64,000 nt of DNA. Source: a virus. Below the pieces are notes generated by a model that saw nothing but the letters and a program-made list of their open reading frames with translations, searched no databases and had not been told where the DNA came from. This document shows positions 9,762 to 37,894 of this stretch, piece after piece. Position 1 is the first letter of the stretch. Every line of letters starts with the position of its first letter. The stretch is taken from the IMG/VR virus record IMGVR_UViG_3300024257_000005, positions 32,001 to 96,000 of that record. The stretch is one strand, 5' to 3'. A program made the position numbers and the translations under genes.

Positions 9762-11108
9762 ATGACTGACGTAGCAAAAAAGACTGAAACAAAAAAGAAA
9801 AAATTACTAGTTCTATCAGACGACATTCGTGTCCCATCAGGTGTGGGCACAATGACAAGACGAATCGTCTTAGACTTAAAGAAAGACTTTGATATAATCC
9901 AGCTTGGTGGAGCAATAGATCATCCGAATCCTCAACCTGTATTAGTAGATGGAATAAAAGTAATCCCAGTAAAAGGGTATGGCGATTCTCATATCGTTAG
10001 AAATTTAATCACAGTGGAACAACCAGACTATATGTTGATCTTTACAGATCCAAGGTACTGAATTTGGTTATGGCAGATCGAAGATGAAATCAGATCTATG
10101 GTTCCCTTAATGTATTATCATCTATGGGATGACTATCCTGCACCACAATATAATAGAGATTTTTATCTATCGAATGACTGGATGGGTTGTATCAGTAAAA
10201 TTTCAAAAGCAATGGTAGAGGAAGTGGCACCAGAATTTAAAGAGAATCCATGGCGCATAGACTATATTCCTCATGGCACTCCTCACGATGAATTTAAACA
10301 GGTTGACAAATCGTCTGTTGAATATCAGAAGTTCATACGTGAATACTACAAGGGTGAATATGAAAAGTATGATTTTATAATTTTTTATAACAATCGTAAT
10401 GTAAGAAGAAAAATGATGGGTGATGTTATGAATGCCTATGATGAATTCCTCAGTACACTACCACAGGAAAAGCAAGACAAATGTTTGCTATTAATGCACA
10501 CTCATGTTTCCGACGACAATGGAACAAATCTTGCAGCACTGAAAAACGACTTATATCCAAACCACAATATTCTATTTAGTGAAGCTAAAGTTCATACAAA
10601 CATTTTGAATTTCATCTATAACTCAGTAGATGTCACGATCAATCTTGCCTCAAATGAAGGTTATGGAATGGCAACGGCTGAATCACTTATGGCCGGCACT
10701 CCAATCATTGCCACAATTACAGGTGGAATGCAAGATCAATTAGGCATTCCCTTTGAGAATGATTTTATGTCAGTTGATGAATGGAAAGTATTGCAAGAGA
10801 ATGGTGAGTCATTTTTGACCTCACATCATGCTGTTGGTATTATTCCAAAAACTAGAAGCCTCCAGGGATCACCTCCAACTCCATATATCTATGATGATAG
10901 AATTAGTTGGATTGATGCTGCGCATGCTATTGAATATTGGTACAACAAGACACCAGAAGAGCGTGTTAAAGCAGGCGAATCAGGACGTCAATATTTAATC
11001 GAAAATGGTCACACAGTAACAGAAATGAACAAGCGTTTTAGGGCAGCAATTAAAGACATTGATGAAAATTGGGAACCCATTAAACGTGTAAATGTAATCG
11101 AGTGCTAA
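9762..11108 (+). CDS. GT-B (GT4-like) glycosyltransferase, one gene across in-frame TGA 10059-10061
   Basis: ORFs 9762..10061 and 10098..11108 are in one frame. The join reads FTDPRY[TGA]IWLWQIEDEIRSMVPLMYYHLWDD. EGYGMATAES motif present. Confidence 0.88.
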
Positions 11109-11109
11109 T

Positions 11110-11625
11110 ATGGTTAAGGCAAAAACAATAAGAAGCAGAACGGATAAGGGTAGAAAAGCAAGAGCCAAGAAGATCAAGACGCTATTGGTCACGGTTCAGA
11201 AGTTTAAAGCGTTCAATGGATATCGCATGGTGTTTATGTACAATGCTAACTCGCAAGAGGGAACTGGAAAATATAGGGTTGAATTTAGATCTTCTCCTGC
11301 CGAACCTATCAATGTTGACAATTGGCTAAAATTTGCATCAGGCGATATACCTGTATTTGCAAATTGTTCATGTCCAGATTTCAAATATAGATGAGAAACG
11401 GTTCTTCATAAGAAGGGCATGGCAAGAATAAAAACCAGTAATGGCGATATGCCGGATGTAACTAATCCGACATATAGAGCATCATATTGTAAACATATAA
11501 TTGCATGTTTTGATCAAATGCAAGCATACATCAGAAGAAGAAACTTTGATGACATTGGTGAGAGATCCAGACTCAACAAGCATCCAGATCTTGAAAAGAA
11601 AGTATTCGATAATGACGGAAAATAA
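11110..11625 (+). CDS. SWIM-type zinc-finger protein across in-frame TGA 11392-11394
   Basis: The CSCPDFKYR[TGA]ETVL...YCKH motif is split between two same-frame ORFs. Confidence 0.82.
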
Positions 11626-12094
11626 AGAAAAAGAACGCGAAGGTTTTCTTCCTCAAGAAGGCGAGATGGATCCAGATGTTGTACGGTTCTTAAATGAATT
11701 TGCTATGACCTTGGACAATTCATTTAAAGAAAAAGATGAGCAGAATTTCGCCTACGCTGACTCAACTGATAAGAAGAACTATCCTTTTGTGTATACGAAA
11801 AACTATGTGCTAACATACACAAATAAGCTCAAAGCATTCTCTGTATTTATTGTAATCACAGCTGATTCAAGAAGTGTGGCTGCCGATATTAAGAGATTGG
11901 AAAAATTCGCCCAAGCAAATGGAAGTTTTGAATTCAATATTGCTAAAGAATATGCTCTTGTTGATGTAAAAAATCAGCGTGTTCTATGGGGAGAAGCAGC
12001 TGAAAATAAGTACGGAGAGATAAGACTTCAAAGCATCATCAATGAATATAAATTAATAGATAGCATGAAAACCGGACAATATGGCGATGCTTAA
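11612..12094 (+). CDS. Hypothetical protein
   Basis: ORF track; probable start MTENK. Confidence 0.55.
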   Translation: MTENKEKEREGFLPQEGEMDPDVVRFLNEFAMTLDNSFKEKDEQNFAYADSTDKKNYPFVYTKNYVLTYTNKLKAFSVFIVITADSRSVAADIKRLEKFAQANGSFEFNIAKEYALVDVKNQRVLWGEAAENKYGEIRLQSIINEYKLIDSMKTGQYGDA

Positions 12095-12150
12095 TTATTT
12101 TATTATATATTTATATAAATAAGTAGATAAATAAATATCAGGAGAATAAA

Positions 12151-12372
12151 ATGGTAACAACAATAACACCAGCAAGACAATTAGTAGATAATTTTAGAGC
12201 AGGACATGCAGATCACAAGCTGAGTATGAACGAGTTTGTCTCACGTGCATTGGTATTATATATGCTAGACAAGGATTTCAAAGTAATGATAGATGATAAG
12301 ATCTTTGATTATGGTAGAACCCTGAATATGTATAAACAACAGGCTTCTAACGAAAACAATCTGAACCAGTAG
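12151..12372 (+). CDS. Small putative DNA-binding protein
   Basis: Follows the late-type motif and an AGGAG RBS; like 9552, it precedes a glycosyltransferase. Confidence 0.55.
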   Translation: MVTTITPARQLVDNFRAGHADHKLSMNEFVSRALVLYMLDKDFKVMIDDKIFDYGRTLNMYKQQASNENNLNQ

Positions 12373-12380
12373 GAGTAAAC

Positions 12381-13727
12381 ATGCAAAAACAAACAATGGT
12401 CGTCATGGCACCTTACACCACAGTGAGTGGGTACGGAGCACATAGTCGAGACATCATACAGGCATTAATTGAAGCTGACAAGTACAATCTATATTTGGTT
12501 CCAATGAACTGGGGAAATACACCTCAGAATGCTTTGAAAGAAAGTAATCCTGTACATAAGAAAATGCTTGATCTGACATTGGATAAGCAATTCGAAGGCA
12601 AGCCAGACTTCTTTGTACACATCTCAATCCCACTAGAGTTTAGACCCTTTGGCAAAAGAAATATTGGCATCACAGCCGGTATGGAAACCGATCGTGTTGC
12701 TCAAGAGTGGATTGAAAAAGCAAATGCAATGGACGTAATGATAGTTCCATCAGAGCACTCAAAGATTGCTCATTCGGAAACCGTTATTCCAATCCAACCA
12801 CGACCAGACATGCCACCAATCGGAGAATTCAGAAGTCAGAAGCCTATTGAAGTATTGTTTGAAGGTGTAGATCTAAGCATCTATAAAGATCTTGGATATA
12901 AATCTGATTTGCCCCATAGACAGGGATCGCCAGAGCTACAACCAATATTTGACATGCCTGAAGAATTTGCATTTCTATATACAGGTCATTGGATGCAAGG
13001 CGGATTTAGAGAAGGTAGAAAAGATGCTGATGGATTGATCTACAATTTCATCAATACATTTAACTACAAAAAGGGAGAGGTTGCTCTCGTACTGAAAACA
13101 ACCATGGGTAATTTTTCAAGGCTAGATAGAAGTGCACTTGAAAAAGAAATTTCTCGAATCAGAGACATGTTCCCCGATAGAGATTCTCAGCCAAATATTT
13201 ATCTTGTTCACGGTAGTCTAACAGATGCTGAAATGAATGAGCTATATAATATTCCAAAGATCAAAGCTATGGTTTCATTAACACATGGTGAAGGCTATGG
13301 AAGACCTCTGGCAGAGTTTGCCGCTGCAACTGGAAAACCAGTTTTAGCTCCATTCTGGTCAGGTCAAGTTGACTTCTTGTTTGAAGGAACCAATGAACTA
13401 TTGTTTGATTACGATTTAGCAAAAGTTCCACCTTCAGCCGTATGGGATAAAGTGATCGTTGAGGGCTCACAATGGGCAAATGTAAAAGATACCGATGTAG
13501 TTCAGAAGCTGACAAAATGTTTTTATAAATATGATGACATGCTTGTATATTCTAAGAAAGTACAGGATCATATTGTCAAATATAAAAATCTTGATCTCAT
13601 GAAGACGCAGCTAATTTCTATCATCGATAGATATGCACCACCACTTGAGTCAAATGTTGTTCTACCAGAATTAACAAAGGGTGGCTCATTGGACTTAAGC
13701 AAACTAAAAGGATTTAAAAAGCAGTAG
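12381..13727 (+). CDS. GT-B (GT4-like) glycosyltransferase
   Basis: SGYGAHSRD, RKDADGL and HGEGYGRPLAE motifs. Confidence 0.88.
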   Translation: MQKQTMVVMAPYTTVSGYGAHSRDIIQALIEADKYNLYLVPMNWGNTPQNALKESNPVHKKMLDLTLDKQFEGKPDFFVHISIPLEFRPFGKRNIGITAGMETDRVAQEWIEKANAMDVMIVPSEHSKIAHSETVIPIQPRPDMPPIGEFRSQKPIEVLFEGVDLSIYKDLGYKSDLPHRQGSPELQPIFDMPEEFAFLYTGHWMQGGFREGRKDADGLIYNFINTFNYKKGEVALVLKTTMGNFSRLDRSALEKEISRIRDMFPDRDSQPNIYLVHGSLTDAEMNELYNIPKIKAMVSLTHGEGYGRPLAEFAAATGKPVLAPFWSGQVDFLFEGTNELLFDYDLAKVPPSAVWDKVIVEGSQWANVKDTDVVQKLTKCFYKYDDMLVYSKKVQDHIVKYKNLDLMKTQLISIIDRYAPPLESNVVLPELTKGGSLDLSKLKGFKKQ

Positions 13728-13735
13728 GAGGCACT

Positions 13736-14239
13736 ATGCTACATACAATATCAATCAAAAAAGATAAATTAATCGAGACCCTGACGGTAAATCGTGAAGT
13801 TCATATAGAAGAATACAAACAAGCTGTTCTGGATTATCACGTCATTGCAAAATATGCTATGGATCAGATGGCAAAAGCTGCTCAAAAAACGGCACTCGCA
13901 TATAAGAAACGAGCAAAAACAATCGAGTCATCTGACGATATGGATGATTGGAATGTTGGTCAAATATACATCAATACTCAAGCACTGACAAATCTTCAAC
14001 TACCACAATCTCATGAGAGTGATTATGACGAAGCAATTGAGATGCTAGAGTTTCACACAATTACCGATGAAGACGACAAAGATACAATCGCTCTTTCACA
14101 AGAGGATTTCAGAACATTCGTTAGAGATGACTGGGCATGGAAAGCACAGTTTTCTAACATGAGTACAATGTACTTTTCTGGTTCTTCAAACATAGGACTC
14201 GGAAATTCTAATCCATTAGAAAAGCTCCACGTAGGTTAA
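13736..14239 (+). CDS. Conserved phage hypothetical protein
   Basis: GGAGG RBS; PQSHESDYDEAIEMLE..LSQEDFRTFVRDDWAW. Confidence 0.65.
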   Translation: MLHTISIKKDKLIETLTVNREVHIEEYKQAVLDYHVIAKYAMDQMAKAAQKTALAYKKRAKTIESSDDMDDWNVGQIYINTQALTNLQLPQSHESDYDEAIEMLEFHTITDEDDKDTIALSQEDFRTFVRDDWAWKAQFSNMSTMYFSGSSNIGLGNSNPLEKLHVG

Positions 14240-14243
14240 TATC

Positions 14244-14516
14244 ATGGAGATGACAATTGCACCAGAGTTTGAAAATAAGATAACTTGCTATGATGAGACT
14301 GAAATAATGTTCTCACTCAATGCAGATGGAGAATTGTTTATTGCTGAGAAATATAGAGCAGATCCATCTCCAGCTTCAAAACGATTTTGAGAATGTATGA
14401 AGGTAAACGGCAAAGAGTGGGCAGACTGTTTTGATGAAAATGAGGCTCTTACAGAAGAAGTGAGTAGCCTTAAGGGCATCATTGAAGGAATGGAAGAAAA
14501 ATATCTAGGAAAATAA
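14244..14516 (+). CDS. Hypothetical protein (90 aa) across in-frame TGA 14388-14390; absent from ORF track
   Basis: Fills the gap between flanking genes exactly; reads ASKRF[TGA]ECMKV. Confidence 0.7.
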
Positions 14517-14517
14517 T

Positions 14518-15036
14518 ATGCAAGGACAAAACTATGAGACCGGCTGCCTTATGCTGGATTTCAAAATAACAAATTGGACATCTATTATCAATAGAGTAAT
14601 TAAGCCTGAGGATGTATATCATCACGAAGATTATGGAATTGAAATGCATCCTCATGCAACAATCATCTACGGATTACCAGATATCCCATGGACAAAGTTG
14701 GCACTATATTGCTATCCCATGAAAATTGTGACGGTGATTATTAATCGTGTTGACATATTTGAGCCTGAAGGTGAGAATTATGATGTAGTTATATTTCCAG
14801 TTGCAAGCAAGGCACTCAAAATGATCAACTACAAGATAGCTGAAAATTTTGGTATCGATCAAACCCATGAAAAATATAGCCCTCACATTACACTTGCATA
14901 TGTGAAAAAAGGTCGAGGTAAGAGCTATGTGAAAAAGCTTGCCAATGAAATTAAATTAAGTCCAAAGGAATACAGATTAACAGGACCAGACGGTCTATTG
15001 AAGACTTGGACAATGCAAGATAAGAAGGAAAAGTAA
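14518..15036 (+). CDS. 2H phosphoesterase (Acb1/T4 57B-like)
   Basis: Two HxT motifs: PHATIIYG and SPHITLAY. Confidence 0.8.
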   Translation: MQGQNYETGCLMLDFKITNWTSIINRVIKPEDVYHHEDYGIEMHPHATIIYGLPDIPWTKLALYCYPMKIVTVIINRVDIFEPEGENYDVVIFPVASKALKMINYKIAENFGIDQTHEKYSPHITLAYVKKGRGKSYVKKLANEIKLSPKEYRLTGPDGLLKTWTMQDKKEK

Positions 15037-15689
15037 TGGAAAACATAATGCAAGATATATTTCTATCATTCAATATGATGGTACAGGACAACGAAGATAT
15101 CATAACGCCAACACTTGAAAGCATCAAGCGATTTATGGATCATCACCCAGGCAAATGCGAATTAGTAATTGTTGACGGTGGTTCAACCGACAAGACGGTA
15201 GAAATATGCAACCGTTTTACAGATCGAGTGCATGAAAAGAAATTTGAAAAGGATTTTTCAGAGCAGAAGAATTTTCTCAATTCAAAATCAATGGGTAGAT
15301 GGATATTCAATATAGACTCAGATGAGATATTGACTGAAGAATTAATCCATACACTATATGCAATGCTCATGCTCCCACAAAATCAAGAAACTGATTTGAT
15401 TTATATTCCTAGAGTAAATAGAGTAGTGGGTCTTACTGAAGGTCATATTGCTAAATGGGGATGGAGAGTTGACAAAGACGGTGACATCAATTACCCAGAT
15501 TATCAAGCAAGAATTTATAAGAACAAACCAGGGCTACATTGGGAAGGCAAGGTTCATGAGACCATAGTAGGTTTTGAATCATATGGCAGCATTCCAATGG
15601 AAAAACACCATCGTCTATATTTGGTACACAATAAAAGTATTGAAAGACAAGTGAAACAAAATGAGTTATATGACACGATTGTGAGGTAA
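15036..15689 (+). CDS. GT-A (GT2) glycosyltransferase
   Basis: VDGGSTDKT, IDSDE and WEGKVHE motifs. Confidence 0.9.
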   Translation: MENIMQDIFLSFNMMVQDNEDIITPTLESIKRFMDHHPGKCELVIVDGGSTDKTVEICNRFTDRVHEKKFEKDFSEQKNFLNSKSMGRWIFNIDSDEILTEELIHTLYAMLMLPQNQETDLIYIPRVNRVVGLTEGHIAKWGWRVDKDGDINYPDYQARIYKNKPGLHWEGKVHETIVGFESYGSIPMEKHHRLYLVHNKSIERQVKQNELYDTIVR

Positions 15690-15691
15690 CA

Positions 15692-16666
15692 GTGAAAATT
15701 GCATTCCTTTCGGAAACGAAGTTAAATGGAAAATATCCGGAAAACTTTTCAAATTCAAGAACAGACGTTGCTTGGCAAACCGCTTTAGGAGCAACACATT
15801 ATTGCATAACCGATCAAAAATTTCTTGGAAAAGAGATTGATATCGCAATAGTAATTCTACCAAAAAACTCAAATACTCTACAAAAAATCGACTCAACAAT
15901 GTTCGACTATTTCCAACAGAGTGGAACCAAAGTCGGAGTAATGCAAGAGGGTCCAAACTGGTATTTTCAAGACTATTCAGCAGAAGATAATCTGCTATAC
16001 TATAAATATTTATTACAGGCGGATTTTATTTTATGTCATAATGAGGTTGATCATGTATATTTTAAAGGGCTGGTCGGGCATAACAATGTTCATATTATGC
16101 CATCAACAATGAGAGATCCCGGTATCAAATCAATTATGCAGATCGAAAGAAAAGAAGAAGTTATGATTGGCGGAGGATTTACAAGTTGGTACGGAGGATT
16201 TGATTCTTTCGTTGTAGCACAGAGAGCCGAGATAACTCCTGTAATGCCTTCAATGGGTAGGCGTCAGGAAAATGAAGAGCTTTGGGGGATAAATCATCTC
16301 CCTTATATGGACTGGACACAATGGATCATGGAGCTCAATCATTACAAATATGCAATACACCTGATGAGAACTTTTGCAGCTGGTACATTTGCTATGAATT
16401 GTGCAGCACTTGGAGTTCCATGTATTGGATATAAAGATCTTGATACTCAAAGAAATCTACATCCAGCACTGTCTATTGACATTGGAGATCTTGGTAAGGC
16501 TGCAAAGCTATTAAAACAGTTAAAAACTGACAAAGGTTTCTATGATGAATGTAGTAGATTAGCAAAGGTAAATTTTATCAATTCAAACTATAATGAACCA
16601 AATTATAGAAATTATATGACTAGATTATTTTATGAGATATTGGAGGAAGAAGATGGAACAATATAG
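15692..16666 (+). CDS. Putative GT-B glycosyltransferase
   Basis: AAGTFAMNCAALGVPCIG C-terminal motif; located in the glycosylation cluster. Confidence 0.65.
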   Translation: MKIAFLSETKLNGKYPENFSNSRTDVAWQTALGATHYCITDQKFLGKEIDIAIVILPKNSNTLQKIDSTMFDYFQQSGTKVGVMQEGPNWYFQDYSAEDNLLYYKYLLQADFILCHNEVDHVYFKGLVGHNNVHIMPSTMRDPGIKSIMQIERKEEVMIGGGFTSWYGGFDSFVVAQRAEITPVMPSMGRRQENEELWGINHLPYMDWTQWIMELNHYKYAIHLMRTFAAGTFAMNCAALGVPCIGYKDLDTQRNLHPALSIDIGDLGKAAKLLKQLKTDKGFYDECSRLAKVNFINSNYNEPNYRNYMTRLFYEILEEEDGTI

Positions 16667-16886
16667 AGAAACAACATTTAATTCATGAATCGAATATAAA
16701 TTATTTATGGAATCAATATCTGTAGGAACTATTGAAAGCGAACAATTATACCATGGACCATTCCCAGATAAAAAAGGTGTCTATATTGTTCCAGCAACAT
16801 GTAGTGCATATTTTGCTGAATTTGATGGTGAAAAATGGATTGACTCTAGTACAAATAGACCTATAGGATTTTATTATAAAGGATAA
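16653..16886 (+). CDS. Hypothetical protein (77 aa) across in-frame TGA 16686-16688; absent from ORF track
   Basis: GGAGG RBS; MEQYRETTFNS[TGA]IEYKLF; fills the intergenic gap. Confidence 0.62.
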
Positions 16887-16890
16887 CACA

Positions 16891-17346
16891 ATGGTAACAG
16901 GATCATTCTCAATTCCAAAAGAAGAAGACATTTGTTGGATCTGTAAACAAGTCGAATGTAAGCATTTGAAAACTACGCCTTCTTATATTAATGAATATTT
17001 CACGGCTTATGATCTCATTGATAAGTGGGAAAGCAAATATGCAGAAGATGTCCCATATGAACTTAAGGTTAGTATAGCAATGCATTTTGAGAATGAAGAT
17101 CAAAAGAGACGTCTATATATTAAGCGTCTACTTGGCGCTATGGAATTCAAATTTTATCAGCAACCTTCGTTTGTTTATGCACCCTATATTCCAATAACGC
17201 CGATGAAAAAATATAAGCCAGAGGATAGATTTGTTATTTGGGATCCATCATGGCAAGACTTCCCTAGATTCTTTGATGTAGGAAGTGAAAAATTGAATAA
17301 AATGATTGTTAGAAGCATAACTAGAAAAAAAAGATGGAGTAAATAA
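16891..17346 (+). CDS. Hypothetical protein with gp23-capsid-like motifs
   Basis: LIDKWE..SIAMHFENE and FVYAPYIP. Confidence 0.5.
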   Translation: MVTGSFSIPKEEDICWICKQVECKHLKTTPSYINEYFTAYDLIDKWESKYAEDVPYELKVSIAMHFENEDQKRRLYIKRLLGAMEFKFYQQPSFVYAPYIPITPMKKYKPEDRFVIWDPSWQDFPRFFDVGSEKLNKMIVRSITRKKRWSK

Positions 17347-17585
17347 TGGAATTAAAAGTAGTTCACTTCGATCCCAAATCAGATACTGTGCTAGGAATCT
17401 ATATTGACGATCAGTTGATCGAAGGTGGAGATGAATATCATAATAATATTACAGTCTGGCTCAAGGCATTTTTGAGAGGAATCTCTGTAACAGGGAAGAG
17501 CTATACAGTAAATAATTTATATACAAAGAAATTTCAAATGCCTGTAGACTATTTCTCAAGCATTGATTTCGAAAGCGAAGGATAG
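17346..17585 (+). CDS. Hypothetical protein
   Basis: TAATG coupling. Confidence 0.55.
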   Translation: MELKVVHFDPKSDTVLGIYIDDQLIEGGDEYHNNITVWLKAFLRGISVTGKSYTVNNLYTKKFQMPVDYFSSIDFESEG

Positions 17586-17589
17586 TAAT

Positions 17590-17916
17590 ATGGAAAACTA
17601 TACACGAGTAATGAAAGCGATTATTAAAGCGCAGATTGAAGACATGGAATTTGAAGAACGAGTGGACTGGTATGAGATCATCATAAAGACATTTGAAATA
17701 GAAGGATGGTCTGAAGCGACCCATGTTCTTGGATGTGATGGAGCATATGACGAAGCAATGGTTCAAGTACACCCAGAAATATTTGAAGATACTATTGATT
17801 TGTCAGTATGTCCCTGTGGTTGCAATGGTGATCTACTTGAAATTGACATCACTTTAGCAGTTTATCGTCCAGCCGAATGTATTACACTAAACTATACTAT
17901 TGAATCACTTGTCTAA
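17590..17916 (+). CDS. Hypothetical protein
   Basis: ORF track; probable start MENY. Confidence 0.5.
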   Translation: MENYTRVMKAIIKAQIEDMEFEERVDWYEIIIKTFEIEGWSEATHVLGCDGAYDEAMVQVHPEIFEDTIDLSVCPCGCNGDLLEIDITLAVYRPAECITLNYTIESLV

Positions 17917-18757
17917 ACAAATTTTAGTCACCGGTGGTGCTGGCTTTATTGGCTCGCATCTTATCCATGCTCTTGTCAGGCCTTGGAATAGTGTTTGGTC
18001 GATCGACAACTATACAACAGGCAATATGAGAAATGAAGTCGAAGGCTGTGAATATTTAGAGAAAGATTTGATCTATGAGTCTACACTCCATGATCATAAA
18101 TTTGATATTATCTATCATCTAGCTGCCAGACCGAGAATACAACCTTCACTATTAGACCCTGAATATACAATGACAAACAATATCATGTCGACACTCAACG
18201 TATTAAAATATGCCAGAAAAACAGGATGTAAAGTTATATTTGCATCATCATCTTCGGTCGGTGGTAATAGATTTGCAAATCCATATACTCTATCAAAGTC
18301 AATGTGTGAAGATTTATGCAGAGAATACCATACGATATACGAGCTTGACATATCTATAGCAAGATTTTATAATGTATATGGGCCAAGAATGATTGGAGAT
18401 TCTGAGTTTGGTACGGTTCTTGGAGTTTGGTTAGAGAGATACAAGAAGAGCAAGCCACTAAAGATAACAGGAGACGGAACTCAACGAAGAGATTTTACTC
18501 ATGTTGACGACATTGTTGCAGGACTAATTGAGATGTCTGGAGACGTTCCATATTATAGACCTGTTGAGCTTGGCCGGGGTGAGAACTATTCATTAAATGA
18601 ATTAGTAGATCTATTCCCTAATGCTAAAAAGGAATATGTAGATCGTCCTTCTGGAGAGATGGCACACACGCTATGTAAAGATAGAAATCCATTCTTAGAT
18701 TGGAAACCTCAACGAAATGTAAAAGATTTCATATTAGAATCAATAAAGGAAAGCTAA
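17900..18757 (+). CDS. NAD-dependent nucleotide-sugar epimerase/dehydratase (extended SDR)
   Basis: TGGAGFIG, ASSSS, YTLSK and GDGTQRRDFTHVDD motifs. Confidence 0.93.
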   Translation: MNHLSKQILVTGGAGFIGSHLIHALVRPWNSVWSIDNYTTGNMRNEVEGCEYLEKDLIYESTLHDHKFDIIYHLAARPRIQPSLLDPEYTMTNNIMSTLNVLKYARKTGCKVIFASSSSVGGNRFANPYTLSKSMCEDLCREYHTIYELDISIARFYNVYGPRMIGDSEFGTVLGVWLERYKKSKPLKITGDGTQRRDFTHVDDIVAGLIEMSGDVPYYRPVELGRGENYSLNELVDLFPNAKKEYVDRPSGEMAHTLCKDRNPFLDWKPQRNVKDFILESIKES

Positions 18758-19998
18758 TGAAAAATGTAACGTTTATAATTCCATCAAGGAATACACTAGA
18801 ACATCTCAAATGGGCATACAGTTCTATTAGAGAAAATGCTAATGCTAATCATGAAATAATTCTTCTTGATGATGCATCTGATGATGGCACAGATAAATGG
18901 ATCAAAGAGGTAGCTGCGACTGATGAGAATGTAACTACACATTTCAACCCAGGTCCTGAGCGAATTGGAATCACAAAACTATATGATCTTGCAGCAAAAA
19001 TGGCAAAAAATGAAATCATATTTGTGGGTCATAGCGATATGATTTATGGACCTGCATTTCTAGAAAAAATGATGGATCACTTGGAAGTAGGAAAAGTGGT
19101 TTGCGCAACAAGAATTGAACCACCATTACATCCACCAGGGCCAGAAAAAATGATTGTCAATTTTGGATTTGATGCTGATCAGTTTGAATATCAGAAATTT
19201 AATAAATTTGTAGAAACTCAGCAAGCAAAACCTGAAAATCAAACTGTGTCAGGTGGAATGTTTGCCCCTTGGATGCTCTACAAGGCAGATTATTGGAAAA
19301 TCGGTGGACATGATCATCTATTCTGTCCACAGTCAAGAGAAGATAGTGATCTATTTAATAGATTTGTACTACAGGGCTATGAGCTTATCCAAGCTAGAGA
19401 TGCATTTGTATATCACATGACATGCAGAGGATCCAGATATAAAGATGGGATTGGTAAAGACTCTGAAGAGTGGAAATTTACCAACTACAAAGCCGAGAGG
19501 AACTTCAATAGAAAATGGGGAACATCAATCCTTCATGATCAATATCTTGCTCCTGTAATTGGCAACAAATATGACAAGCATGTTGTTTTAGATTTTACGA
19601 ATGACGAACTGGAATCTCAAGAGCTATATGAAGCATTATCAATAATCGAACCATGGGCAAGTAAAATCACAATCATTACAGAAAACAAAGAATTGATTAA
19701 TGAAACAAATGCATATATCGCCAACGAACAAAAGCTAACTACATACAACATGGAAGAACGCGTTTCTATCCAGCCTGAAATTACAAAAGACTGGGTTGCA
19801 CAAGATGAACATGACATCATATTCATTACTACAATGAAAAATTTCAGAACAGATAACGGAGTTGTAATTGTAGCATTAAACAATGTATTAGAACAAGTAA
19901 CAGAGCCCTCTTCATATTCAATTAGCAATTCATTACTGGTCGTTAAAAAATTAAAGAGAGACCACTTCAAAGAAAATATTGTAGCTGTAAACGATTAA
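18757..19998 (+). CDS. GT-A (GT2) glycosyltransferase
   Basis: LLDDASDDGT, HSDM and REDSDL motifs; start at ATG 18757 (TAATG coupling). Confidence 0.88.
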   Translation: MKNVTFIIPSRNTLEHLKWAYSSIRENANANHEIILLDDASDDGTDKWIKEVAATDENVTTHFNPGPERIGITKLYDLAAKMAKNEIIFVGHSDMIYGPAFLEKMMDHLEVGKVVCATRIEPPLHPPGPEKMIVNFGFDADQFEYQKFNKFVETQQAKPENQTVSGGMFAPWMLYKADYWKIGGHDHLFCPQSREDSDLFNRFVLQGYELIQARDAFVYHMTCRGSRYKDGIGKDSEEWKFTNYKAERNFNRKWGTSILHDQYLAPVIGNKYDKHVVLDFTNDELESQELYEALSIIEPWASKITIITENKELINETNAYIANEQKLTTYNMEERVSIQPEITKDWVAQDEHDIIFITTMKNFRTDNGVVIVALNNVLEQVTEPSSYSISNSLLVVKKLKRDHFKENIVAVND

Positions 19999-20148
19999 CT
20001 TTCTCTGCCAGCTTATATTTATTAATAAGCGGCAGAGGACACACACATACGTGCGGCTTGATTTGAAATAACAAAAAGATTTTCCCAAAAATATTATGTA
20101 TATAGTCCTCGATTACTTTGGGGACTTTTTTATTTTAGGAGAAGTATC

Positions 20149-20643
20149 GTGGCATCAAGACATACAATCGACCAACAATTCATATCACAAGAGGTAGGCG
20201 GCCGCACAATAACACCAAGAATTATGGGCGGAGCAATTACTCCAGCAAATTCTGAATCGGTGATGATCCCAATTAAAGTTAATAGTCAGGGCGAACAGGT
20301 CATGGGCTTTGCCGATGATCCTTTATTAGTTACAGCTCCAGCATATAGTACTGCATTGACAAGTGGAAGTGTAGTAAAATCGAGCCCAGGATTTCTAAGT
20401 TCACTTACTGGATATAATTCAGGTGCCGCTCAATTTGTTCAAATTCACAATCTCTCAACCGCTCCACTGAATGGTGCAATTCCAATTAGTGTGATAGCAG
20501 TGGCAGCAACATCAAACTTCTCAATAACATTTGGCTCAACTGGACTACCACTTACCGATGGTATTGGTGTATTCAATTCAAGTACTGCAGCAACATTAAC
20601 AAGTGGTTCAAACGATATACTATTTACAGCAATATATAACTAG
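20149..20643 (+). CDS. Putative virion decoration/fibre protein A
   Basis: Ser/Thr/Gly-rich with beta-strand character; N-terminal 50 aa paralogous to the next gene. Confidence 0.5.
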   Translation: MASRHTIDQQFISQEVGGRTITPRIMGGAITPANSESVMIPIKVNSQGEQVMGFADDPLLVTAPAYSTALTSGSVVKSSPGFLSSLTGYNSGAAQFVQIHNLSTAPLNGAIPISVIAVAATSNFSITFGSTGLPLTDGIGVFNSSTAATLTSGSNDILFTAIYN

Positions 20644-20651
20644 GATAAATC

Positions 20652-21263
20652 ATGGGCAGCCATACAATAGATAAAGTATTCATATCACAAGAGGGAGGTG
20701 GAACAACCCAACAACCCAGAATGATGGGTGGGCTGATAACTCCTCTTGCATCGGAATCTATAATGCTTCCTACAAAATTGACACCACATGGCGCACAAGT
20801 TGTTGCTTCAACATCTGAAGCTAATATTGAAGATGGAACAAGGTTTATTACAACAACAGTATTAAAAGCACTACCATCAGAATCAATCAATATGTTATAC
20901 GCAGTTCCATCGCCAGATAATTCAACACATATCACAGCAGAAATCTATGTGTCGGTAGGAACAGAGCTTTGGATCTATGAAAGCCCAACTGTTTCAGCAA
21001 CTGGCTCGCTATTAGAAAATGTAAATCTAAATAGAACGTCGGCAATAACAAGCTCAATGAAAATGTCTGCTGGACCAACAGTTTCAAATAGTGGAAGTAT
21101 ATTATCAAATATGTACATTGGTGCAGGTACAAAAAATTCACCAATCCCAGGTAATGAAGTGTTTTCATTTATTTTTGATTCTACAAAAACGTATTTAATG
21201 AAAGTGGTACCTGGAGCAGATAATGCAATTCTATCTCTTGGTAGTGCTTGGTGCGAGGAATAA
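20652..21263 (+). CDS. Putative virion decoration/fibre protein B
   Basis: Shares the HTID..FISQE.GG..PR.MGG.ITP..SES N-terminus with 20149. Confidence 0.5.
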   Translation: MGSHTIDKVFISQEGGGTTQQPRMMGGLITPLASESIMLPTKLTPHGAQVVASTSEANIEDGTRFITTTVLKALPSESINMLYAVPSPDNSTHITAEIYVSVGTELWIYESPTVSATGSLLENVNLNRTSAITSSMKMSAGPTVSNSGSILSNMYIGAGTKNSPIPGNEVFSFIFDSTKTYLMKVVPGADNAILSLGSAWCEE

Positions 21264-21266
21264 TCT

Positions 21267-21815
21267 ATGTGCGATATAATGATAGTTGATGACGATAAGA
21301 GCATCCACACACTACTAGAATTACAATTGAAAAAGACTAATCTATGTGGTGGAAATTGTGAACTAGCACATGCATATTCTGCAGAAGAAGCAATTGAATT
21401 AGTAGGGAAACTAGATCACAGACCTTTCATATTCTTTGTTGATATAAATTTACCACAGAAATCTGGACCAGAATTTGTGAAATGGTTACATGAAAAAGAA
21501 GTATTTGCATTAATATTTATAGTCACAGGATCAGATGTGACTCCAATTGAATTTGAAAAACTGATCACAGCTGGAGTTGATGGATATTTTAGAAAGCCGA
21601 TTAATCAGAACTTATTAAAAACGATTGTTGGTATGACTTTAACGAAAGCCACTAAATTGGGTAGAAAACATGCTCGAATGTTTCACGAAACCGTAGGGAT
21701 GAAATTTGACAATTCTGTCCTTGACAACATTATTGAAAAATCAAAACATTTGAACATCTTATATGAAGAATTTCATTCAAGTAGACAAGGAGTTAGAGAA
21801 GATGCCACTATCTAA
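21267..21815 (+). CDS. Response-regulator receiver domain protein
   Basis: IMIVDDD, FVDINLPQKSG, VTG and FRKP: all canonical REC residues present. Confidence 0.88.
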   Translation: MCDIMIVDDDKSIHTLLELQLKKTNLCGGNCELAHAYSAEEAIELVGKLDHRPFIFFVDINLPQKSGPEFVKWLHEKEVFALIFIVTGSDVTPIEFEKLITAGVDGYFRKPINQNLLKTIVGMTLTKATKLGRKHARMFHETVGMKFDNSVLDNIIEKSKHLNILYEEFHSSRQGVREDATI

Positions 21816-22314: not shown

Positions 22315-22597
22315 AATATTTATAATGTTCGGTGGAAGAAAATTCCTATCTGTTATCCTTGCATCATTCTTGACATTCATGTCGGTCATATGGACATTTG
22401 GTCTAACCGAGACTGTTCCTACATATGCTCCATCTGCTAAAGATGCTAGCATTGAATATGTCATTACAGGCTACGAATTACAAGAGCCAATTCAGGCATA
22501 CTCATTCATTGGTATAATCGTACCTTCATACTTCTTGCTGATCACAGCTTATGCTGGTATCAATGCATATTCAAAAAAGAAAGACATACCTGACTAA
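22304..22597 (+). CDS. Holin-like two-TM membrane protein
   Basis: GGRKF followed by two hydrophobic helices and a basic C-terminus. Confidence 0.5.
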   Translation: MMSKIFIMFGGRKFLSVILASFLTFMSVIWTFGLTETVPTYAPSAKDASIEYVITGYELQEPIQAYSFIGIIVPSYFLLITAYAGINAYSKKKDIPD

Positions 22598-22663
22598 ATA
22601 AAAATTAATTCACCAGTCATCCCTTTATATTTAACAATGAACTTAAACATAAAGGGATAACCG

Positions 22664-33099: not shown

Positions 33100-33173
33100 G
33101 CTGGATTAGCTCAAGTGGGTAGAGCCGGGGTTTTGTAAACCTCAGGTTGCAGGTTCGAGGCCTGTGTCCAGCG
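33100..33173 (+). tRNA. tRNA-Thr(UGU)
   Basis: Cloverleaf, acceptor GCTGGAT/GTCCAGC, anticodon TGT. Confidence 0.9.
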
Positions 33174-33226
33174 CAGATGTTTTTTGACAAATTTTTTATT
33201 AATGGGTTCTACTCCCATCCAAGAAT

Positions 33227-33310
33227 GCCTCGGTGGCGGAATTGGTAGACGCGCTGGTCTTAGGCACCAGTCCCCGAAAGGGGGTGCAAGTTCGAGTCTT
33301 GTTCGGGGTA
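33227..33310 (+). tRNA. tRNA-Leu(UAG)
   Basis: Class II cloverleaf, loop CTTAGGC. Confidence 0.92.
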
Positions 33311-33558
33311 CATAATTTAATTTCATTTAGTTGTTTCATTTGACTACACTGGGGTTAGATTAATAAGGTAAAAAGTTATTTGACAATAAGGGCAATGAAG
33401 AAAAAGATAAAGTAAATGGGATGACACGGATTAACACATACACCCTCAAACAGGACACCCAAGTGGTACACCCTAAAGTAGGACATGCTTCCCCGTGCTC
33501 AAATACTTTTGATATAAAGAAGTGCTCCCTAGATCATTGGAATTTAGGGAGTTTATAT

Positions 33559-33633
33559 TCCGCCATAGCTCAGTCAGGTTAGAGCGCCGGATTGTTAATC
33601 CGGATGTCCTTGGTTCGAATCCAAGTGGCGGAG
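33559..33633 (+). tRNA. tRNA-Asn(GUU)
   Basis: TCCGCCA/TGGCGGA, loop TTGTTAA. Confidence 0.93.
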
Positions 33634-33768
33634 CATTGCAACAAAAACGTGGGCAACGGGTCGTAGTGTGTAGGTTGAGGATACTCATCATATGGAACTA
33701 GCTTATTGTGTCCGTGGGGTGCCATCTTGTTCTGCAGGACAATGTTGGAATCAACCTCAAAACTTTAA

Positions 33769-33843
33769 GCCTCGCTAGCTCAATTGGCTCAGAGCAGTGG
33801 CCCTTTAAGCCATTGGTTCCAGGTTCGAGTCCTGGGCGGGGTA
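33769..33843 (+). tRNA. tRNA-Lys(UUU)
   Basis: Cloverleaf, loop CCTTTAA (C33). Confidence 0.88.
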
Positions 33844-33864
33844 CAAAACGAAACTTAAAAATGA

Positions 33865-33945
33865 GTTGAGTAGACACCCTATGGGCCATATTGGATAAGA
33901 GGTCATTAGACAGCGCTACCAAAGGTTCGAATCCTTCGCTCAATG
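33865..33945 (+). ncRNA. Degenerate tRNA-like element
   Basis: Acceptor GTTGAGT/GCTCAAT and T-arm AAGG-TTCGAAT-CCTT are present; D and anticodon arms cannot be resolved. Confidence 0.4.
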
Positions 33946-34021
33946 TTGAAGATTTAAGTGGAAACTATTTGAACCAATATATCAATTGGCCAAACGATAT
34001 ATTCAAATAGGGTAGAATTAT

Positions 34022-34096
34022 CGAGGTGTGGCGCAGTCCGGTTAGCGCACTTGCTTTGGGAGCAAGGGGTCGTAGGTTCGAATCCTACTACCTCGA
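34022..34096 (+). tRNA. tRNA-Pro(UGG)
   Basis: CGAGGTG/TACCTCG, loop TTTGGGA. Confidence 0.93.
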
Positions 34097-34182
34097 CGAG
34101 TTGAGCTGCCAGTCCAGATTACGGAGGCTATTCCAATGACGGTTCGTCCGATGAAAGAAATAGCAACATGGCATTTTTAAAA

Positions 34183-34254
34183 CCTGAGGAAGTCTAATGG
34201 TAGAGGCTGGGCCCAGGAAGTCTGGTATAGCAAGTTCGATTCTTGTCTTTGGGA
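34183..34254 (+). tRNA. Atypical tRNA-like gene (loop CCAGGAA, nominal anticodon AGG)
   Basis: Acceptor CCTGAGG/CTTTGGG, D-loop AATGGTA, T-arm GCAAG-TTCGATT-CTTGT; many G-U pairs. Confidence 0.5.
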
Positions 34255-34259
34255 CAAAC

Positions 34260-34333
34260 GTGGCATTAGTGTAATGGTAACATTCCAGATTTCCAATCTG
34301 GGGTTGCGGGTTCGAGTCCTGTATGCCACACCA
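34260..34333 (+). tRNA. tRNA-Gly(UCC)
   Basis: Cloverleaf with encoded CCA. Confidence 0.92.
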
Positions 34334-34353
34334 ATAAAAAGAAAGGTTATATT

Positions 34354-34755
34354 ATGATCAAGGAACTTTATGAAGTAAGAGTAAATTTCACAATGGAGCG
34401 TGATGAATTTGAAAACGCTATTGATAAGATTCGAAATTGTATGAGAATCGAATTCAAAAGAGGAATTGCTTATGTTCCTGTTCCTCAGAATGCTCAACTC
34501 ATAATTACTAACATTGAAGATTATTCAACAGCAGTACATATAGAGCAAAAAATATTAAATAATGGGCCAGTGGTGAAACTGGTAAACGCAACAGGCTTAA
34601 GCCCTGTCGACCGTAATGGTCTTGTGGGTTCGAATCCCTCCTGGTCTACTTGGTCCATTAAACTAAATGAAAGGTTATATTATGCAAGCATGGGGACACA
34701 AAACTCTCGAACAGTTAGACAAAATGACTGATCAAAGATTGTTAGCTTATTATAA
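34354..34755 (+). CDS. Hypothetical protein whose frame runs through tRNA-Leu(UAA)
   Basis: GAAAGGTTATATTATG leader identical to that of 34682. No stop before the tRNA; TGA at 34729, TAA at 34753. Confidence 0.5.
34564..34648 (+). tRNA. tRNA-Leu(UAA)
   Basis: Class II cloverleaf, loop CTTAAGC. Confidence 0.92.
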
Positions 34756-34942
34756 GGCTATTAGAGTTCCACAATGGAATTATAATAGCTGGTATGAAAA
34801 CGACACTGAAGAATTCATTGAAGCTCAAGAAGCTTACATAGCAAAAGTTAAGATGGTTCTTGAAGATAGAGGACATGTAAAAACTCGTGGAAGAAAAGAT
34901 CCCCATGTAAATGACAATACAAAGGATCCAAAATTAAAATAG
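34682..34942 (+). CDS. Hypothetical protein
   Basis: RBS GAAAGG; stop overlaps the 5' end of tRNA-Asp. Confidence 0.6.
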   Translation: MQAWGHKTLEQLDKMTDQRLLAYYKAIRVPQWNYNSWYENDTEEFIEAQEAYIAKVKMVLEDRGHVKTRGRKDPHVNDNTKDPKLK

Positions 34943-35014
34943 GGCCGTAGCTCAATTGGTTAGAGCACCGGACTGTCAATCCGGAGGTTGGGGGTTCAAG
35001 TCCCCTCGGTCCTG
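34941..35014 (+). tRNA. tRNA-Asp(GUC)
   Basis: AGGGCCG/CGGTCCT, loop CTGTCAA. Confidence 0.92.
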
Positions 35015-35016
35015 CT

Positions 35017-35103
35017 GTGCATGTGGCAGATAGGTAATGCGCCTGGCCGTGGCCCAGGTTGGATAATATCCTCATGCGGGTTCAAATCCCGTCGTGCACC
35101 CCA
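35017..35103 (+). tRNA. tRNA-His(GUG) with long variable arm
   Basis: GTGCATG/CGTGCAC, C73, encoded CCA; loop CCGTGGC; 17-nt variable region. Confidence 0.82.
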
Positions 35104-35186
35104 CCCAGTAATGTCATCCAGGCATTGACACCGGATTGTAATCCCGGTTCCTAATGGAGTTGTAGGTTCGAGTCCTTCTACTGGGA
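35104..35186 (+). tRNA. tRNA-Tyr(GUA), C1:G72, long variable arm
   Basis: CCCAGTA/TACTGGG, loop TTGTAAT; atypical D-arm. Confidence 0.75.
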
Positions 35187-35207
35187 CAAATTTAAAATGG
35201 AGAATAT

Positions 35208-35837
35208 ATGACTGAAAATTTAGCATTTAAAGATGGCAAGTGGACTGAAAAATGGTTTGATCAGAATATTGAAGCATGGACTGAAGCAATCGATGGCTAT
35301 AAAAAATATGAAGGTGATATTAAATCGGTTCTTGAAATTGGATGCTTTGAAGGTCGAGCAACTGTCTGGCTATGCAATACTGTACCAACAATTGAAAAAT
35401 ATACAGTTATTGATACATTCAAAGGAAGCTTAGAAGAAAAAGGTATGGAACGAGCAAAAGATAATTTGACAAAAAATGAAAGTCATATCAGATCAAATTT
35501 TGAACATAATATTTCTAAATTCAGAGACAAAATTGATTTCACAATAGTTGAAGGTGAATCACAGAGTATGCTGCATGATATTAAAGGAAAATATGATTTC
35601 ATATATATTGATGGAAGTCATAGATCTGATGATGTTTTTATAGATGCATACTGGGCAGATAAATTATTAAATGTGAATGGCATAATGATTTTTGATGATT
35701 TTGGATGGACAAATCCCGATAGTGAATTATTAATTGATAGCCCAGGATTTGGAATTGGAGAATTTCTTACAATTCACACACATGATTACAATATATTTTT
35801 AAGAGGTTATCAACTCGGAATACAAAAAACAAAATAA
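35208..35837 (+). CDS. Class I SAM-dependent methyltransferase
   Basis: VLEIGCFEGR, YIDGSH and IFDDFGW motifs. Confidence 0.9.
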   Translation: MTENLAFKDGKWTEKWFDQNIEAWTEAIDGYKKYEGDIKSVLEIGCFEGRATVWLCNTVPTIEKYTVIDTFKGSLEEKGMERAKDNLTKNESHIRSNFEHNISKFRDKIDFTIVEGESQSMLHDIKGKYDFIYIDGSHRSDDVFIDAYWADKLLNVNGIMIFDDFGWTNPDSELLIDSPGFGIGEFLTIHTHDYNIFLRGYQLGIQKTK

Positions 35838-35905
35838 GGAGAATGCTATGAGCAATGGAGGAATCGGTCGATTTAGTTAGTTAAACTAAATCAAGGAGAC
35901 CGAAA

Positions 35906-36238
35906 ATGAGTAAGACCCAAAGAAGAAAAAAAGGACCAATCCCACAACATGTCACTCACGACTATGTAAAAGTAGGTGTTCGAATCAAAGAACATTATTA
36001 CATTTATTACTGGGAATGGTTGCCTATAAGTGAGGAAGATCAAAAAATAGCCATTGCAAAATACTATTCTGATACTGGAATTGGTAGAAAATGGCCCGTA
36101 CCAAGTTGGTATGCAAAAATGCTAAACAATGATTACAGAACAAAAGCCAGACACGAAATGCAAAAAATCAACTCATGGAAAGATTGGGAAGAATATGAAT
36201 TCGATCCAAAGCTTAATTGCAAAGGCTGGTACTGGTAA
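35906..36238 (+). CDS. Hypothetical protein
   Basis: AAGGAG RBS. Confidence 0.6.
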   Translation: MSKTQRRKKGPIPQHVTHDYVKVGVRIKEHYYIYYWEWLPISEEDQKIAIAKYYSDTGIGRKWPVPSWYAKMLNNDYRTKARHEMQKINSWKDWEEYEFDPKLNCKGWYW

Positions 36239-36287
36239 GATTTAAATAGTTTAGAGCTGTGGTTCTATTCAAAAACCATAGCCACAT

Positions 36288-36361
36288 CCCCTGGTAGCTC
36301 CAATTGGTAGAGCGGTACAGTGAAATCGTATGCGATGCTGGTTCAAGTCCGGCCCGGGGGA
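36288..36361 (+). tRNA. tRNA-Phe(GAA), atypical
   Basis: CCCCTGG/CCGGGGG, loop GTGAAAT, A31-C39 mismatch. Confidence 0.8.
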
Positions 36362-36363
36362 CT

Positions 36364-36496
36364 AAGAGAATGACCTACTAGGGCGACAAGCCTGCTCTAT
36401 CTTTGCCTCACTGAACCACATTCAGAAGAGGGTGATATCAGCGGTCCTAATTTCTTTGGAAAGCCTAAACTTGTGGAAGGCGGTACCTCTTCTCTT
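36364..36496 (+). ncRNA. Unidentified structured RNA candidate
   Basis: Closing AAGAGAA/TTCTCTT, then ACAAG/CTTGT and CCTC-CTGAA/TTCAG-GAGG helices; GC-rich and non-coding. Confidence 0.45.
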
Positions 36497-36500
36497 TTAA

Positions 36501-36577
36501 CGCGCATTGGTCTAGTCTGGTTCTAGGACGTCGGGTTTTCATCCCGAAGGTCACCGGTTCGAATCCGGTATGCGTGA
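36501..36577 (+). tRNA. tRNA-Glu(UUC)
   Basis: CGCGCAT/ATGCGTG, loop TTTTCAT. Confidence 0.9.
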
Positions 36578-36582
36578 CTAAT

Positions 36583-36653
36583 GGTCGGTTAGTGTAATGG
36601 TAACACCGCAGGTTTTGATCCTGCTATTATAGGTTCAAGTCCTGTATCGACTG
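36583..36653 (+). tRNA. tRNA-Gln(UUG)
   Basis: GGTCGGT/ATCGACT, loop TTTTGAT. Confidence 0.88.
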
Positions 36654-36658
36654 CATAT

Positions 36659-36731
36659 CGCACTGTAGCTAAATGGTAAAGCCCCCGGCTCATATCCGGA
36701 AGATTTGGTGGTTCAAGCCCACTCAGTGCGA
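36659..36731 (+). tRNA. tRNA-Met(CAU)
   Basis: CGCACTG/CAGTGCG, loop CTCATAT. Confidence 0.85.
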
Positions 36732-36742
36732 CAACAATAGAA

Positions 36743-36815
36743 GGGGCATTAGCTCAGCTGGGAGAGCGCCGCACTTGCACTGCGGAGGTCGCAGGTTCGA
36801 TCCCTGTATGCTCCA
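36743..36815 (+). tRNA. tRNA-Ala(UGC)
   Basis: G3:U70 identity pair, loop CTTGCAC. Confidence 0.95.
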
Positions 36816-36883
36816 CTTTGAGATAAGCAGAGAAAGAGCCTGCAATTTTATCTCAATAGTCCGGATAGCTCTGCCGGACACTC

Positions 36884-36954
36884 GGGTTATTAGTTCAATG
36901 GTAGAATACTCGCCTGTAAAGCGACAGATAGCAGTTCAAGTCTGTTATAACCCA
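36884..36954 (+). tRNA. tRNA-Tyr(GUA), G1:C72, short variable loop
   Basis: GGGTTAT/ATAACCC, loop CTGTAAA, 4-nt variable loop. Confidence 0.8.
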
Positions 36955-36961
36955 CAATAAT

Positions 36962-37033
36962 GCACCATGAGCTCGACGGTAGAGCAGCTGCCTGATATGC
37001 AGAAGGTACTAGGTTCAATTCCTAGGTGGTGTA
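36962..37033 (+). tRNA. tRNA-Ile(GAU)
   Basis: GCACCAT/GTGGTGT, loop CTGATAT. Confidence 0.82.
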
Positions 37034-37088
37034 CGAAACGAATCTCATTATAGGATAGCGTCCGACAATTAATTGGGATTCGTATTTT

Positions 37089-37162
37089 GGCTTCTTAGCT
37101 CAGTAGGTTAGAGCAGCGGATTCTTAATCCGAAGGTCACAGGTTCAATTCCTGTAGAGGCTA
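37089..37162 (+). tRNA. tRNA-Lys(CUU)
   Basis: GGCTTCT/AGAGGCT, loop TTCTTAA. Confidence 0.88.
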
Positions 37163-37216
37163 CAATCAAAACCATTTTTATAGTTCGAGTATATTTATAT
37201 TAAACAGGAGAATAAT

Positions 37217-37894
37217 ATGAATATATGTGAAAATTGCAAACAAGAGCATGATGGACAATATGGATCTGGTAGATTCTGTTCAGATAAATGTGCAAGAGGA
37301 TTTAGCACTAAGGCAAAAAGAAAAAACATTAATGAAAAAGTATCTAGAAAATTAAAAATTAATAAACCAATCAGATTCTGTAAGATCTGCAATGTAGAAA
37401 TTGGATCTAGAACGCAGCTTGGATATTGTCAAAAACACCTATATGAAAGTGAAGAATATAGATCTCTATTAAGAAAGCCCCATAAATCAGGGTCTGGTGG
37501 TTTGAGAACAGGTGGAGGAAGATCAAAGGTGTTTGAATATGATAGTAAATATGCTGGGTTAGTTAAGCTAAATAAACATGAAATTGAAGTTGCAAAAATA
37601 TTTGACTCATTAGAGATATTATGAAATCGTAACTGAAAAGGTTTTAGATATGTCGATCTAGAAGGTAGAGATAGAAAATATTATCCCGATTTCTATATTC
37701 CAGAATTTGATTATTATGTCGAATATAAAGGATGAGTTAATGTAGTTTTAAATCATAAGATGAACAATGCTGTTGAGCTTAATGATTTTAAATTATTAAT
37801 TATATATAGCGACGACAAGCGATACAGCCAGCTTGGACTATCGTTGTCAGAGCTTAAAAAATGTCCTCAAAAACTAATTAGAGGTATCGGTTAA
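37217..37894 (+). CDS. Zinc-finger plus PD-(D/E)xK (homing-type) endonuclease, 225 aa, with three in-frame TGA (37622, 37634, 37733)
   Basis: EIL[TGA]NRN[TGA]KGFRY..RKYYPDFYIPEFDYYVEYKG[TGA]. The catalytic PDF..EYK motif lies beyond the ORF-track stop. Confidence 0.85.

Follow-up and report, generated by a model that had tools for sequence, protein, structure and literature searches.

TGA very probably encodes tryptophan in the virion-gene blocks of a seawater phage distantly related to Flavobacterium phage immuto

Phages in which TGA is read as tryptophan (genetic code 4) have been described from the human and animal gut in the Agate, Jade and Sapphire clades, where the recoding is concentrated in structural and lysis genes; suppressor tRNAs with the anticodon TCA (Sup-TCA), RF1 or a tryptophanyl-tRNA synthetase (TrpRS) are known from some TGA-recoded phages, and suppressor tRNAs were detected in only 35% of code-4 phages (Borges et al., bioRxiv 10.1101/2021.08.26.457843) or, in another survey, in only 15% (PMC11210395). 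Phage genomes using multiple genetic codes in blocks have been reported with Mgcod (bioRxiv 10.1101/2022.06.29.495998), and the gut phage phAss-1 (OQ749652), with a predicted Clostridia host, reassigns TAG to glutamine and carries three Sup-CTA tRNAs (PMC10607447). UGA readthrough is also documented for the A9C and G24A mutations of Escherichia coli tRNA-Trp (PMC13092985). Here we report on a stretch of 64,000 nucleotides (hereafter the window), corresponding to genome positions 32001–96000 of a single 105,677-bp IMG/VR record, IMGVR_UViG_3300024257_000005, which derives from a contractile-tailed seawater phage distantly related to Flavobacterium phage immuto. An earlier note, made from the letters of the window, had proposed that TGA is read as tryptophan in a subset of its genes and had stated that TGA-to-Trp phages exist, as the late-gene-biased class of Borges et al. 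and the Mgcod genomes indeed attest. Homologue columns along the contig give strong support to TGA as a tryptophan codon, and the record very probably represents a half-complete genome in which recoding is arranged in blocks of virion genes.

To place the TGA codons against homologues, a code-4 gene set was built for the contig, every TGA was masked as X and the resulting proteins were compared by tblastn with the complete genome of immuto and with the remaining relatives retrieved. Among the alignable in-frame TGA sites, 9/19 face a Trp (47%), compared with 44/109 TGG sites (40%) and a background of 1.1% (P = 1.6e-13). No residue other than Trp stands out opposite TGA, thus excluding glycine (code 25), cysteine and selenocysteine. 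Altogether 41 credible in-frame TGA sites are found on the contig, with six of them in one 439-aa protein, and TGG is still the main Trp codon, as the earlier note had maintained. The comparison of coding density under codes 4 and 11, which it had proposed as a check, gave a clear rise at the two contig ends, where open reading frame (ORF) coverage goes from 0.73 to 0.91 (L005) and from 0.68 to 0.96 (L007) under code 4, and the number of genes falls from 165 to 137. Genes of the code-4 set stop at TAA (106) or TAG (31), with at most 2/137 possibly ending in TGA, in agreement with the claim that nearly all other credible + strand genes end in TAA or TAG. These two TGAs lie on the + strand, one ending gene 55034–55804, with a TAA three codons further (55802–55813), the other ending gene 57515–58348, with an ATGA overlap with the next gene and a TAA two codons further (58346–58354), and both mark a gene end under either code. 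A TGA followed by a nearby TAA is thus seen at both possible TGA-ending genes, a number (N = 2) that is not significant.

In immuto and in most IMG/VR relatives ORF coverage is barely altered under code 4, the exceptions being L018, L014 and L009; the closest IMG/VR relatives (L009–L011) show at most a small rise. As a side observation, L018 (IMGVR_UViG_3300044858_003138, 5.8 kb, GC 46%), a distant tail-sheath relative, goes from 0.76 to 0.99 under code 4 and may be another TGA-recoded phage.

The in-frame TGAs listed in the earlier note were all found in the frame given there, at window positions 10059, 11392, 14388, 16686, 22144, 23600, 37622, 37634 and 37733. The genes discussed here lie on the + strand, and reading through the TGAs restores complete ORFs that terminate in TAA or TAG, as had been stated; PHROG and Pfam matches run across the TGAs. 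Relatives have a Trp opposite the TGA at 7/9 sites, the tryptophan reading of 14388 being based on coding potential and that of 16686 on a ribosome-binding site. In the predicted GT1-type glycosyltransferase (9762–11108, 448 aa), matched by PF00534 and phrog_2170 over residues 17–328, TGA 10059 corresponds to W100 and the column is W in both immuto and Microcystis phage Mel-JY01, within the motif FTDPRYW. In the Mel-JY01 record (L001:1486–2977) the homologue is annotated as two adjacent CDSs; the first of them aligns badly towards its end, and this points to a frameshift or a sequencing error in the record. The adjacent SWIM zinc-finger protein (11110–11625, 171 aa; phrog_18980 over residues 82–133) has TGA 11392 as W95, inside the restored CxC...CKH SWIM motif, and this residue is invariant in 4/4 jumbo-phage homologues.

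Two small proteins gave no homologue in our searches. For the 90-aa protein at 14244–14516, where TGA 14388 would be W49, coding potential in frame amounts to 0.52 bit/codon ahead of the TGA and, for the 41 codons past it, to 0.47 bit/codon, compared with a gene mean of 0.38; the other frames are negative. The protein of about 77 aa at 16653–16886 has TGA 16686 as its 12th codon if translation starts at ATG 16653, a start assigned from a GGAGGA ribosome-binding site that precedes it and is lacking before ATG 16707; sites of this type are found before 71% of genes and 16% of background ATGs. Site 16686 is the weakest among the nine, and a further TGA at 16617, upstream of the start at 16653, is probably not coding.

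In the putative membrane-anchored protein at 21763–22314 (183 aa), TGA 22144 corresponds to W128, directly before a hydrophobic helix, and the sole full-length homologue among 1.8 billion representatives, P0129 (171 aa, ~52% identical), has a W there and runs on through the site; public gene calls of this protein consist of two fragments only, P0008 and P0130. The DUF1599-family protein at 23570–23941 (123 aa) has TGA 23600 as W11, where the three closest homologues (70–78% identical) also have W, as KKW, REW or KTW; its start at 23570 is preceded by a Shine-Dalgarno-like site and the one at 23624 is not. These 70–78% identical relatives seem to use TGG at the column, their proteins having been called through that position. 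The zinc-finger and PD-(D/E)xK endonuclease, Holliday-junction-resolvase-like, at 37217–37894 (225 aa; phrog_22215 and phrog_9019 across the sites) has TGA at all three of its Trp codons (37622, 37634, 37733), while the surrounding region is at ~5% TGA; homologues have W at the three columns in 3/3, 1/3 and 2/3 cases, respectively. The last 15 nt of this gene overlap a tRNA-Trp gene described below. Over 35 aa, the zinc finger at the N-terminus shares 71% identity with part of Prevotella phage Lak-A2, and the endonuclease may be a mobile homing nuclease.

Recoding is unevenly distributed along the contig. The two ends (genome 1–16,300 and 96,800–105,677), coding for tail sheath, baseplate hub and wedge, head-tail adaptor and large tail proteins, hold 34 credible TGAs and 66 TGGs, and the 80 kb between them 6 TGAs and 341 TGGs, so that TGA accounts for 34/100 Trp codons (34%) at the structural ends vs 6/347 (~2%) in the middle (Fisher odds ratio 29, p = 7e-19); in the 3' baseplate block it reaches 57%. 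No credible TGA is found in genome 16,300–41,700 and 70,000–96,800, two blocks with 72 genes and 218 TGGs whose part within the window includes DNA polymerase, helicase, NAD-dependent ligase, thymidylate kinase, polynucleotide kinase and RNA ligase; in the glycosyltransferase and tRNA region of the window TGA is used occasionally. Once TGA is counted as Trp, the baseplate block goes from 4.9 to 11.4 Trp per 1000 codons, and regional frequencies level out at 11–16 per 1000 codons. The sparse, low-frequency recoding described in the earlier note therefore holds for the window and not for the contig; what the window shows is the margin of a recoding that runs densely through blocks of virion genes. 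The note's suggestion that the recoding may be conditional agrees, as far as can be read from codon distribution, with how abruptly TGA use changes between virion and replication genes.

Two intergenic motifs were seen along the contig. The 9-mer TATATTTAT occurs in 15 copies, all intergenic, on the + strand and, for most of the genes that follow, 13–135 nt upstream (among others at window 9533, 12106, 20014, 32696, 37190, 42685, 57433, 58632 and 62356, and at L005:4366, 6670, 7293 and 16248), and precedes the tail sheath, the gene next to it (possibly the tail tube), baseplate hub genes, the glycosyltransferase operon and the endonuclease whose Trp codons are all TGA. The motif is a candidate for a promoter of late type, with a tie to TGA use that is not strict, since two of the copies head TGA-free blocks as well. 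The second motif, AACTGTTTCAT (window 5558, 32937, 33332, 39313, 42210, 51361 and 52814), is found repeatedly ahead of genes and also within the tRNA array, and may be another promoter class.

That the TGAs are not sense codons at all, being instead assembly errors, pseudogene stops, selenocysteine codons or isolated programmed-readthrough sites, has nothing in its favour beyond the stops being there, and is hardly credible. Two DNA and two RNA-library assemblies, independent of one another, were aligned to window 9700–23700 and differ at only two single bases, 21480 and 21755, neither at a TGA; assembly error is therefore excluded, and the TGG that the earlier note thought reads might reveal did not appear. 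The number of credible sites, with a Trp conservation equal to that of TGG, the homologue columns, which are Trp and not Cys or Sec, and the coding potential carrying on in frame all speak against such a reading, which we regard as effectively refuted. For selenocysteine insertion, the two weak sub-threshold tRNA-Sec matches retrieved fall on tRNA-Ser genes, and the candidate was rejected.

The phage was detected in 14 seawater DNA runs (2018) and in 6 seawater RNA-library runs (2025), and the contigs of the latter, a kind of library that may contain DNA, show TGA and not TGG. Longer contigs of the same phage, of 128 kb and 133 kb, are present in public assemblies. Exact-pattern scans of viral and metagenome contig sets for the same phage gave no match, near-identical records being possibly not included in these sets, and a tail-sheath search of IMG/VR retrieved distant relatives only (≤52% identical), most of which appear to use the standard code. 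ENA and Logan contigs of 70–107 kb carry the DUF1599 relatives 70–78% identical mentioned above (P0011, P0012), and therefore closer kin exist than any in IMG/VR.

As to the decoding of UGA, no tRNA with a UCA anticodon, RF1/PCRF or TrpRS was found on the contig. In particular, the 27 tRNA genes (array at window 33100–42856, + strand) and the transfer-messenger RNA (tmRNA) gene gave no UCA anticodon with ARAGORN in normal and relaxed mode, nor in an Rfam search of the array with E values of up to 1, so that the absence noticed earlier within the window extends to the whole contig; a custom scan for UCA anticodon arms returned nothing credible, ARAGORN run permissively with introns only noise, and domain searches no RF-1, PCRF or class-Ib synthetase (TrpRS). 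In a tRNA-like remnant at 33866–33946 the T-arm (GGTTCGAATCC) is good and the acceptor stem matches, but no anticodon arm can be recognised; the remnant is not called by ARAGORN or Rfam and, like two other tRNA candidates, folds no better than shuffles. The search for RF1 or tRNA-UCA elsewhere in the genome, asked for in the earlier note, thus came back empty for the 105.7-kb contig, which is linear and ~50% complete (CheckV), and because half of the genome is missing this absence proves little.

The most likely decoder, to which we would give somewhat less than an even chance, is a conventional phage suppressor tRNA-Trp(UCA), accompanied perhaps by RF1 or TrpRS, encoded in the unassembled half. 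Synteny with immuto indicates that the regions coding there for tail fibre, primase, terminase, portal, protease and capsid are absent from our contig, with the stretch from terminase through portal and capsid to tail fibre wholly missing; the 128-kb and 133-kb contigs attest that more of this genome exists, and Sup-TCA, RF1 and TrpRS have precedents among TGA-recoded phages. On the contrary, the 27-gene tRNA array already lies fully within the contig, the corresponding immuto region carries no tRNA genes, and most published code-4 phages are likewise without a detectable Sup-TCA.

A second candidate, weaker and in our opinion unlikely, is the sole tRNA-Trp of the contig (37880–37951, + strand; CCA anticodon; called by ARAGORN, Rfam 55.6 bits), which might read UGA near-cognately by means of a change in the tRNA body, with host RF2 competing, as do the A9C and Hirsh G24A suppressors. 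This tRNA has U8-C9 and a GGUU/AACC D-stem with U12:A23 and G11:C24, and the C9 over U12:A23 is uncommon: position 9 is A or G in 23/27 tRNAs of the phage and in 26/26 sampled tRNA-Trp genes of Bacteroidia, where, once two register slips were corrected, C never occurs; the class sampled is that of a genome labelled Flavobacteriales whose GroEL is similar. BLAST of the phage tRNA-Trp against five Flavobacteriales-type genomes gave no match. In-frame TGAs shun T at position +4 (7% vs 21% after TGG, with p = 0.006 uncorrected for the four positions) and favour G, T being the commonest base after real stops in this phage; the bias fits release-factor competition and is a mild hint in favour of near-cognate reading. 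On the other side stands phAss-1, whose tRNA-Trp is the nearest among 50,697 phage records (86% identity, U8-C9 and the GGUU/AACC D-arm being shared): this TAG-to-Gln phage ends 14/45 long ORFs (~31%) in TGA over its first 50 kb under code 15, and the coexistence of C9 with TGA as a stop argues against C9 as a sufficient decoder. Moreover, the many A9C and/or G24A genes listed among bacterial tRNA-Trp(CCA) are of the type with a 4-bp anticodon stem (PMC13092985, NAR 2026), while the phage stem is a normal one of 5 bp (A27-U43, C28-G42, G29-C41, C30-G40, U31-A39). The Blastocrithidia-like type of tRNA-Trp(CCA), whose stem has 4 bp (PMC13092985), is thus ruled out, and so is the Hirsh G24A type, position 24 being a C paired with G11. 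Finally, near-cognate reading is usually inefficient, and the 439-aa protein would need six readthroughs.

With regard to the host, the tmRNA tag of the phage, GTNYAIAA, from which the earlier note had proposed a Bacteroidota-related host, resembles Bacteroidota tags ending in NYALAA. Immuto, the nearest isolated relative, infects a Baltic Flavobacterium, and the GroEL encoded by the phage (window 30948–32582), a gene that immuto has as well, is 62–67% identical to GroELs of Bacteroidota, Ignavibacteriota and Chlorobiota. The nearest isolated phage and the GroEL similarity make a Bacteroidota-related host plausible. If the host itself used code 4, the phage could follow it and have no need of a switch, which would account for a contig without suppressor machinery and recalls the Mycoplasma and Spiroplasma hosts of most isolated code-4 phages (PMC11210395). 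This we consider very unlikely, because the 72 TGA-free early genes with their 218 TGGs, next to virion genes at 34–57%, are difficult to account for with a TGA that can be read freely, and since relatives and GroEL indicate Bacteroidota/FCB hosts and the closest IMG/VR relatives (L009–L011) rise at most slightly under code 4. As far as we are aware, code 4 is not used by any free-living marine representative of these groups.

For a phage-directed recoding, the most likely logic is analogous to that of the gut-phage proposal: the host would read TGA as a stop, early genes would be written so as to stay readable in the host code, and TGA-bearing genes would give a full-length product only after a phage-directed UGA decoder becomes active. 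Several points weigh against this picture. Besides the absence of any tRNA(UCA), RF1/PCRF or TrpRS from the contig, the standard code of the host is presumed; the partition is not absolute, with some TGAs in non-structural genes of the middle (glycosyltransferase, SWIM protein and endonuclease); the label "late" is taken from gene function only; and the depletion of TGA stops with respect to immuto (12/219 genes) is not significant (p = 0.09) and was not used as evidence.

Compared with the clades of Borges et al., this phage fits the late-gene-biased TGA-to-Trp class in every testable feature, namely in-frame TGAs interrupting otherwise intact genes, a coding density that rises under code 4, and TGA aligned with Trp and enriched in virion and not in replication genes. 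It also shares a large genome with many tRNAs. The host is presumed to use the standard code, as there, and in those clades, too, a suppressor tRNA is often undetectable. It differs in habitat and lineage, being a seawater phage related to a Flavobacterium phage and not one of the human or animal gut, and its genome, ~50% complete, yielded no Sup-TCA, RF1 or TrpRS; the tmRNA together with the 27-tRNA array also sets it apart. As in the Mgcod phages, one part of the genome is readable in code 11 and another needs opal reassignment, whereas the boundaries here are not clean, a few TGAs being scattered in the glycosyltransferase and tRNA region. With phAss-1 the phage shares alternative coding and a similar tRNA-Trp(CCA), C9 and D-arm included, but phAss-1 recodes TAG and apparently stops at TGA. 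With the E. coli A9C and Hirsh G24A suppressors it shares the CCA anticodon, the 5-bp anticodon stem and a C9 over U12:A23; unlike those laboratory mutants, its tRNA-Trp is a natural phage gene with a candidate function only, and the C at position 24 is not the Hirsh change.

The high novelty implied by the earlier note fails unless the complete genome proves to be without a UCA tRNA. If the reading by C9 were true, it would amount to UGA decoding through a change in the tRNA body without a UCA tRNA, a mechanism undemonstrated in any phage, and could account for most code-4 phages without a detectable suppressor. For annotation the consequences are immediate: under code 11 at least 28 genes, those for the tail sheath, the baseplate and a 1087-aa tail protein among them, fall into fragments, and public protein databases already contain such fragments (P0008, P0009 and P0130). 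The phage is abundant in many seawater DNA and RNA libraries and offers a clean test case for UGA decoding in code-4 phages without a detectable Sup-TCA. With it, late-gene-biased opal recoding reaches beyond the gut phages to a marine one that probably infects Bacteroidota.

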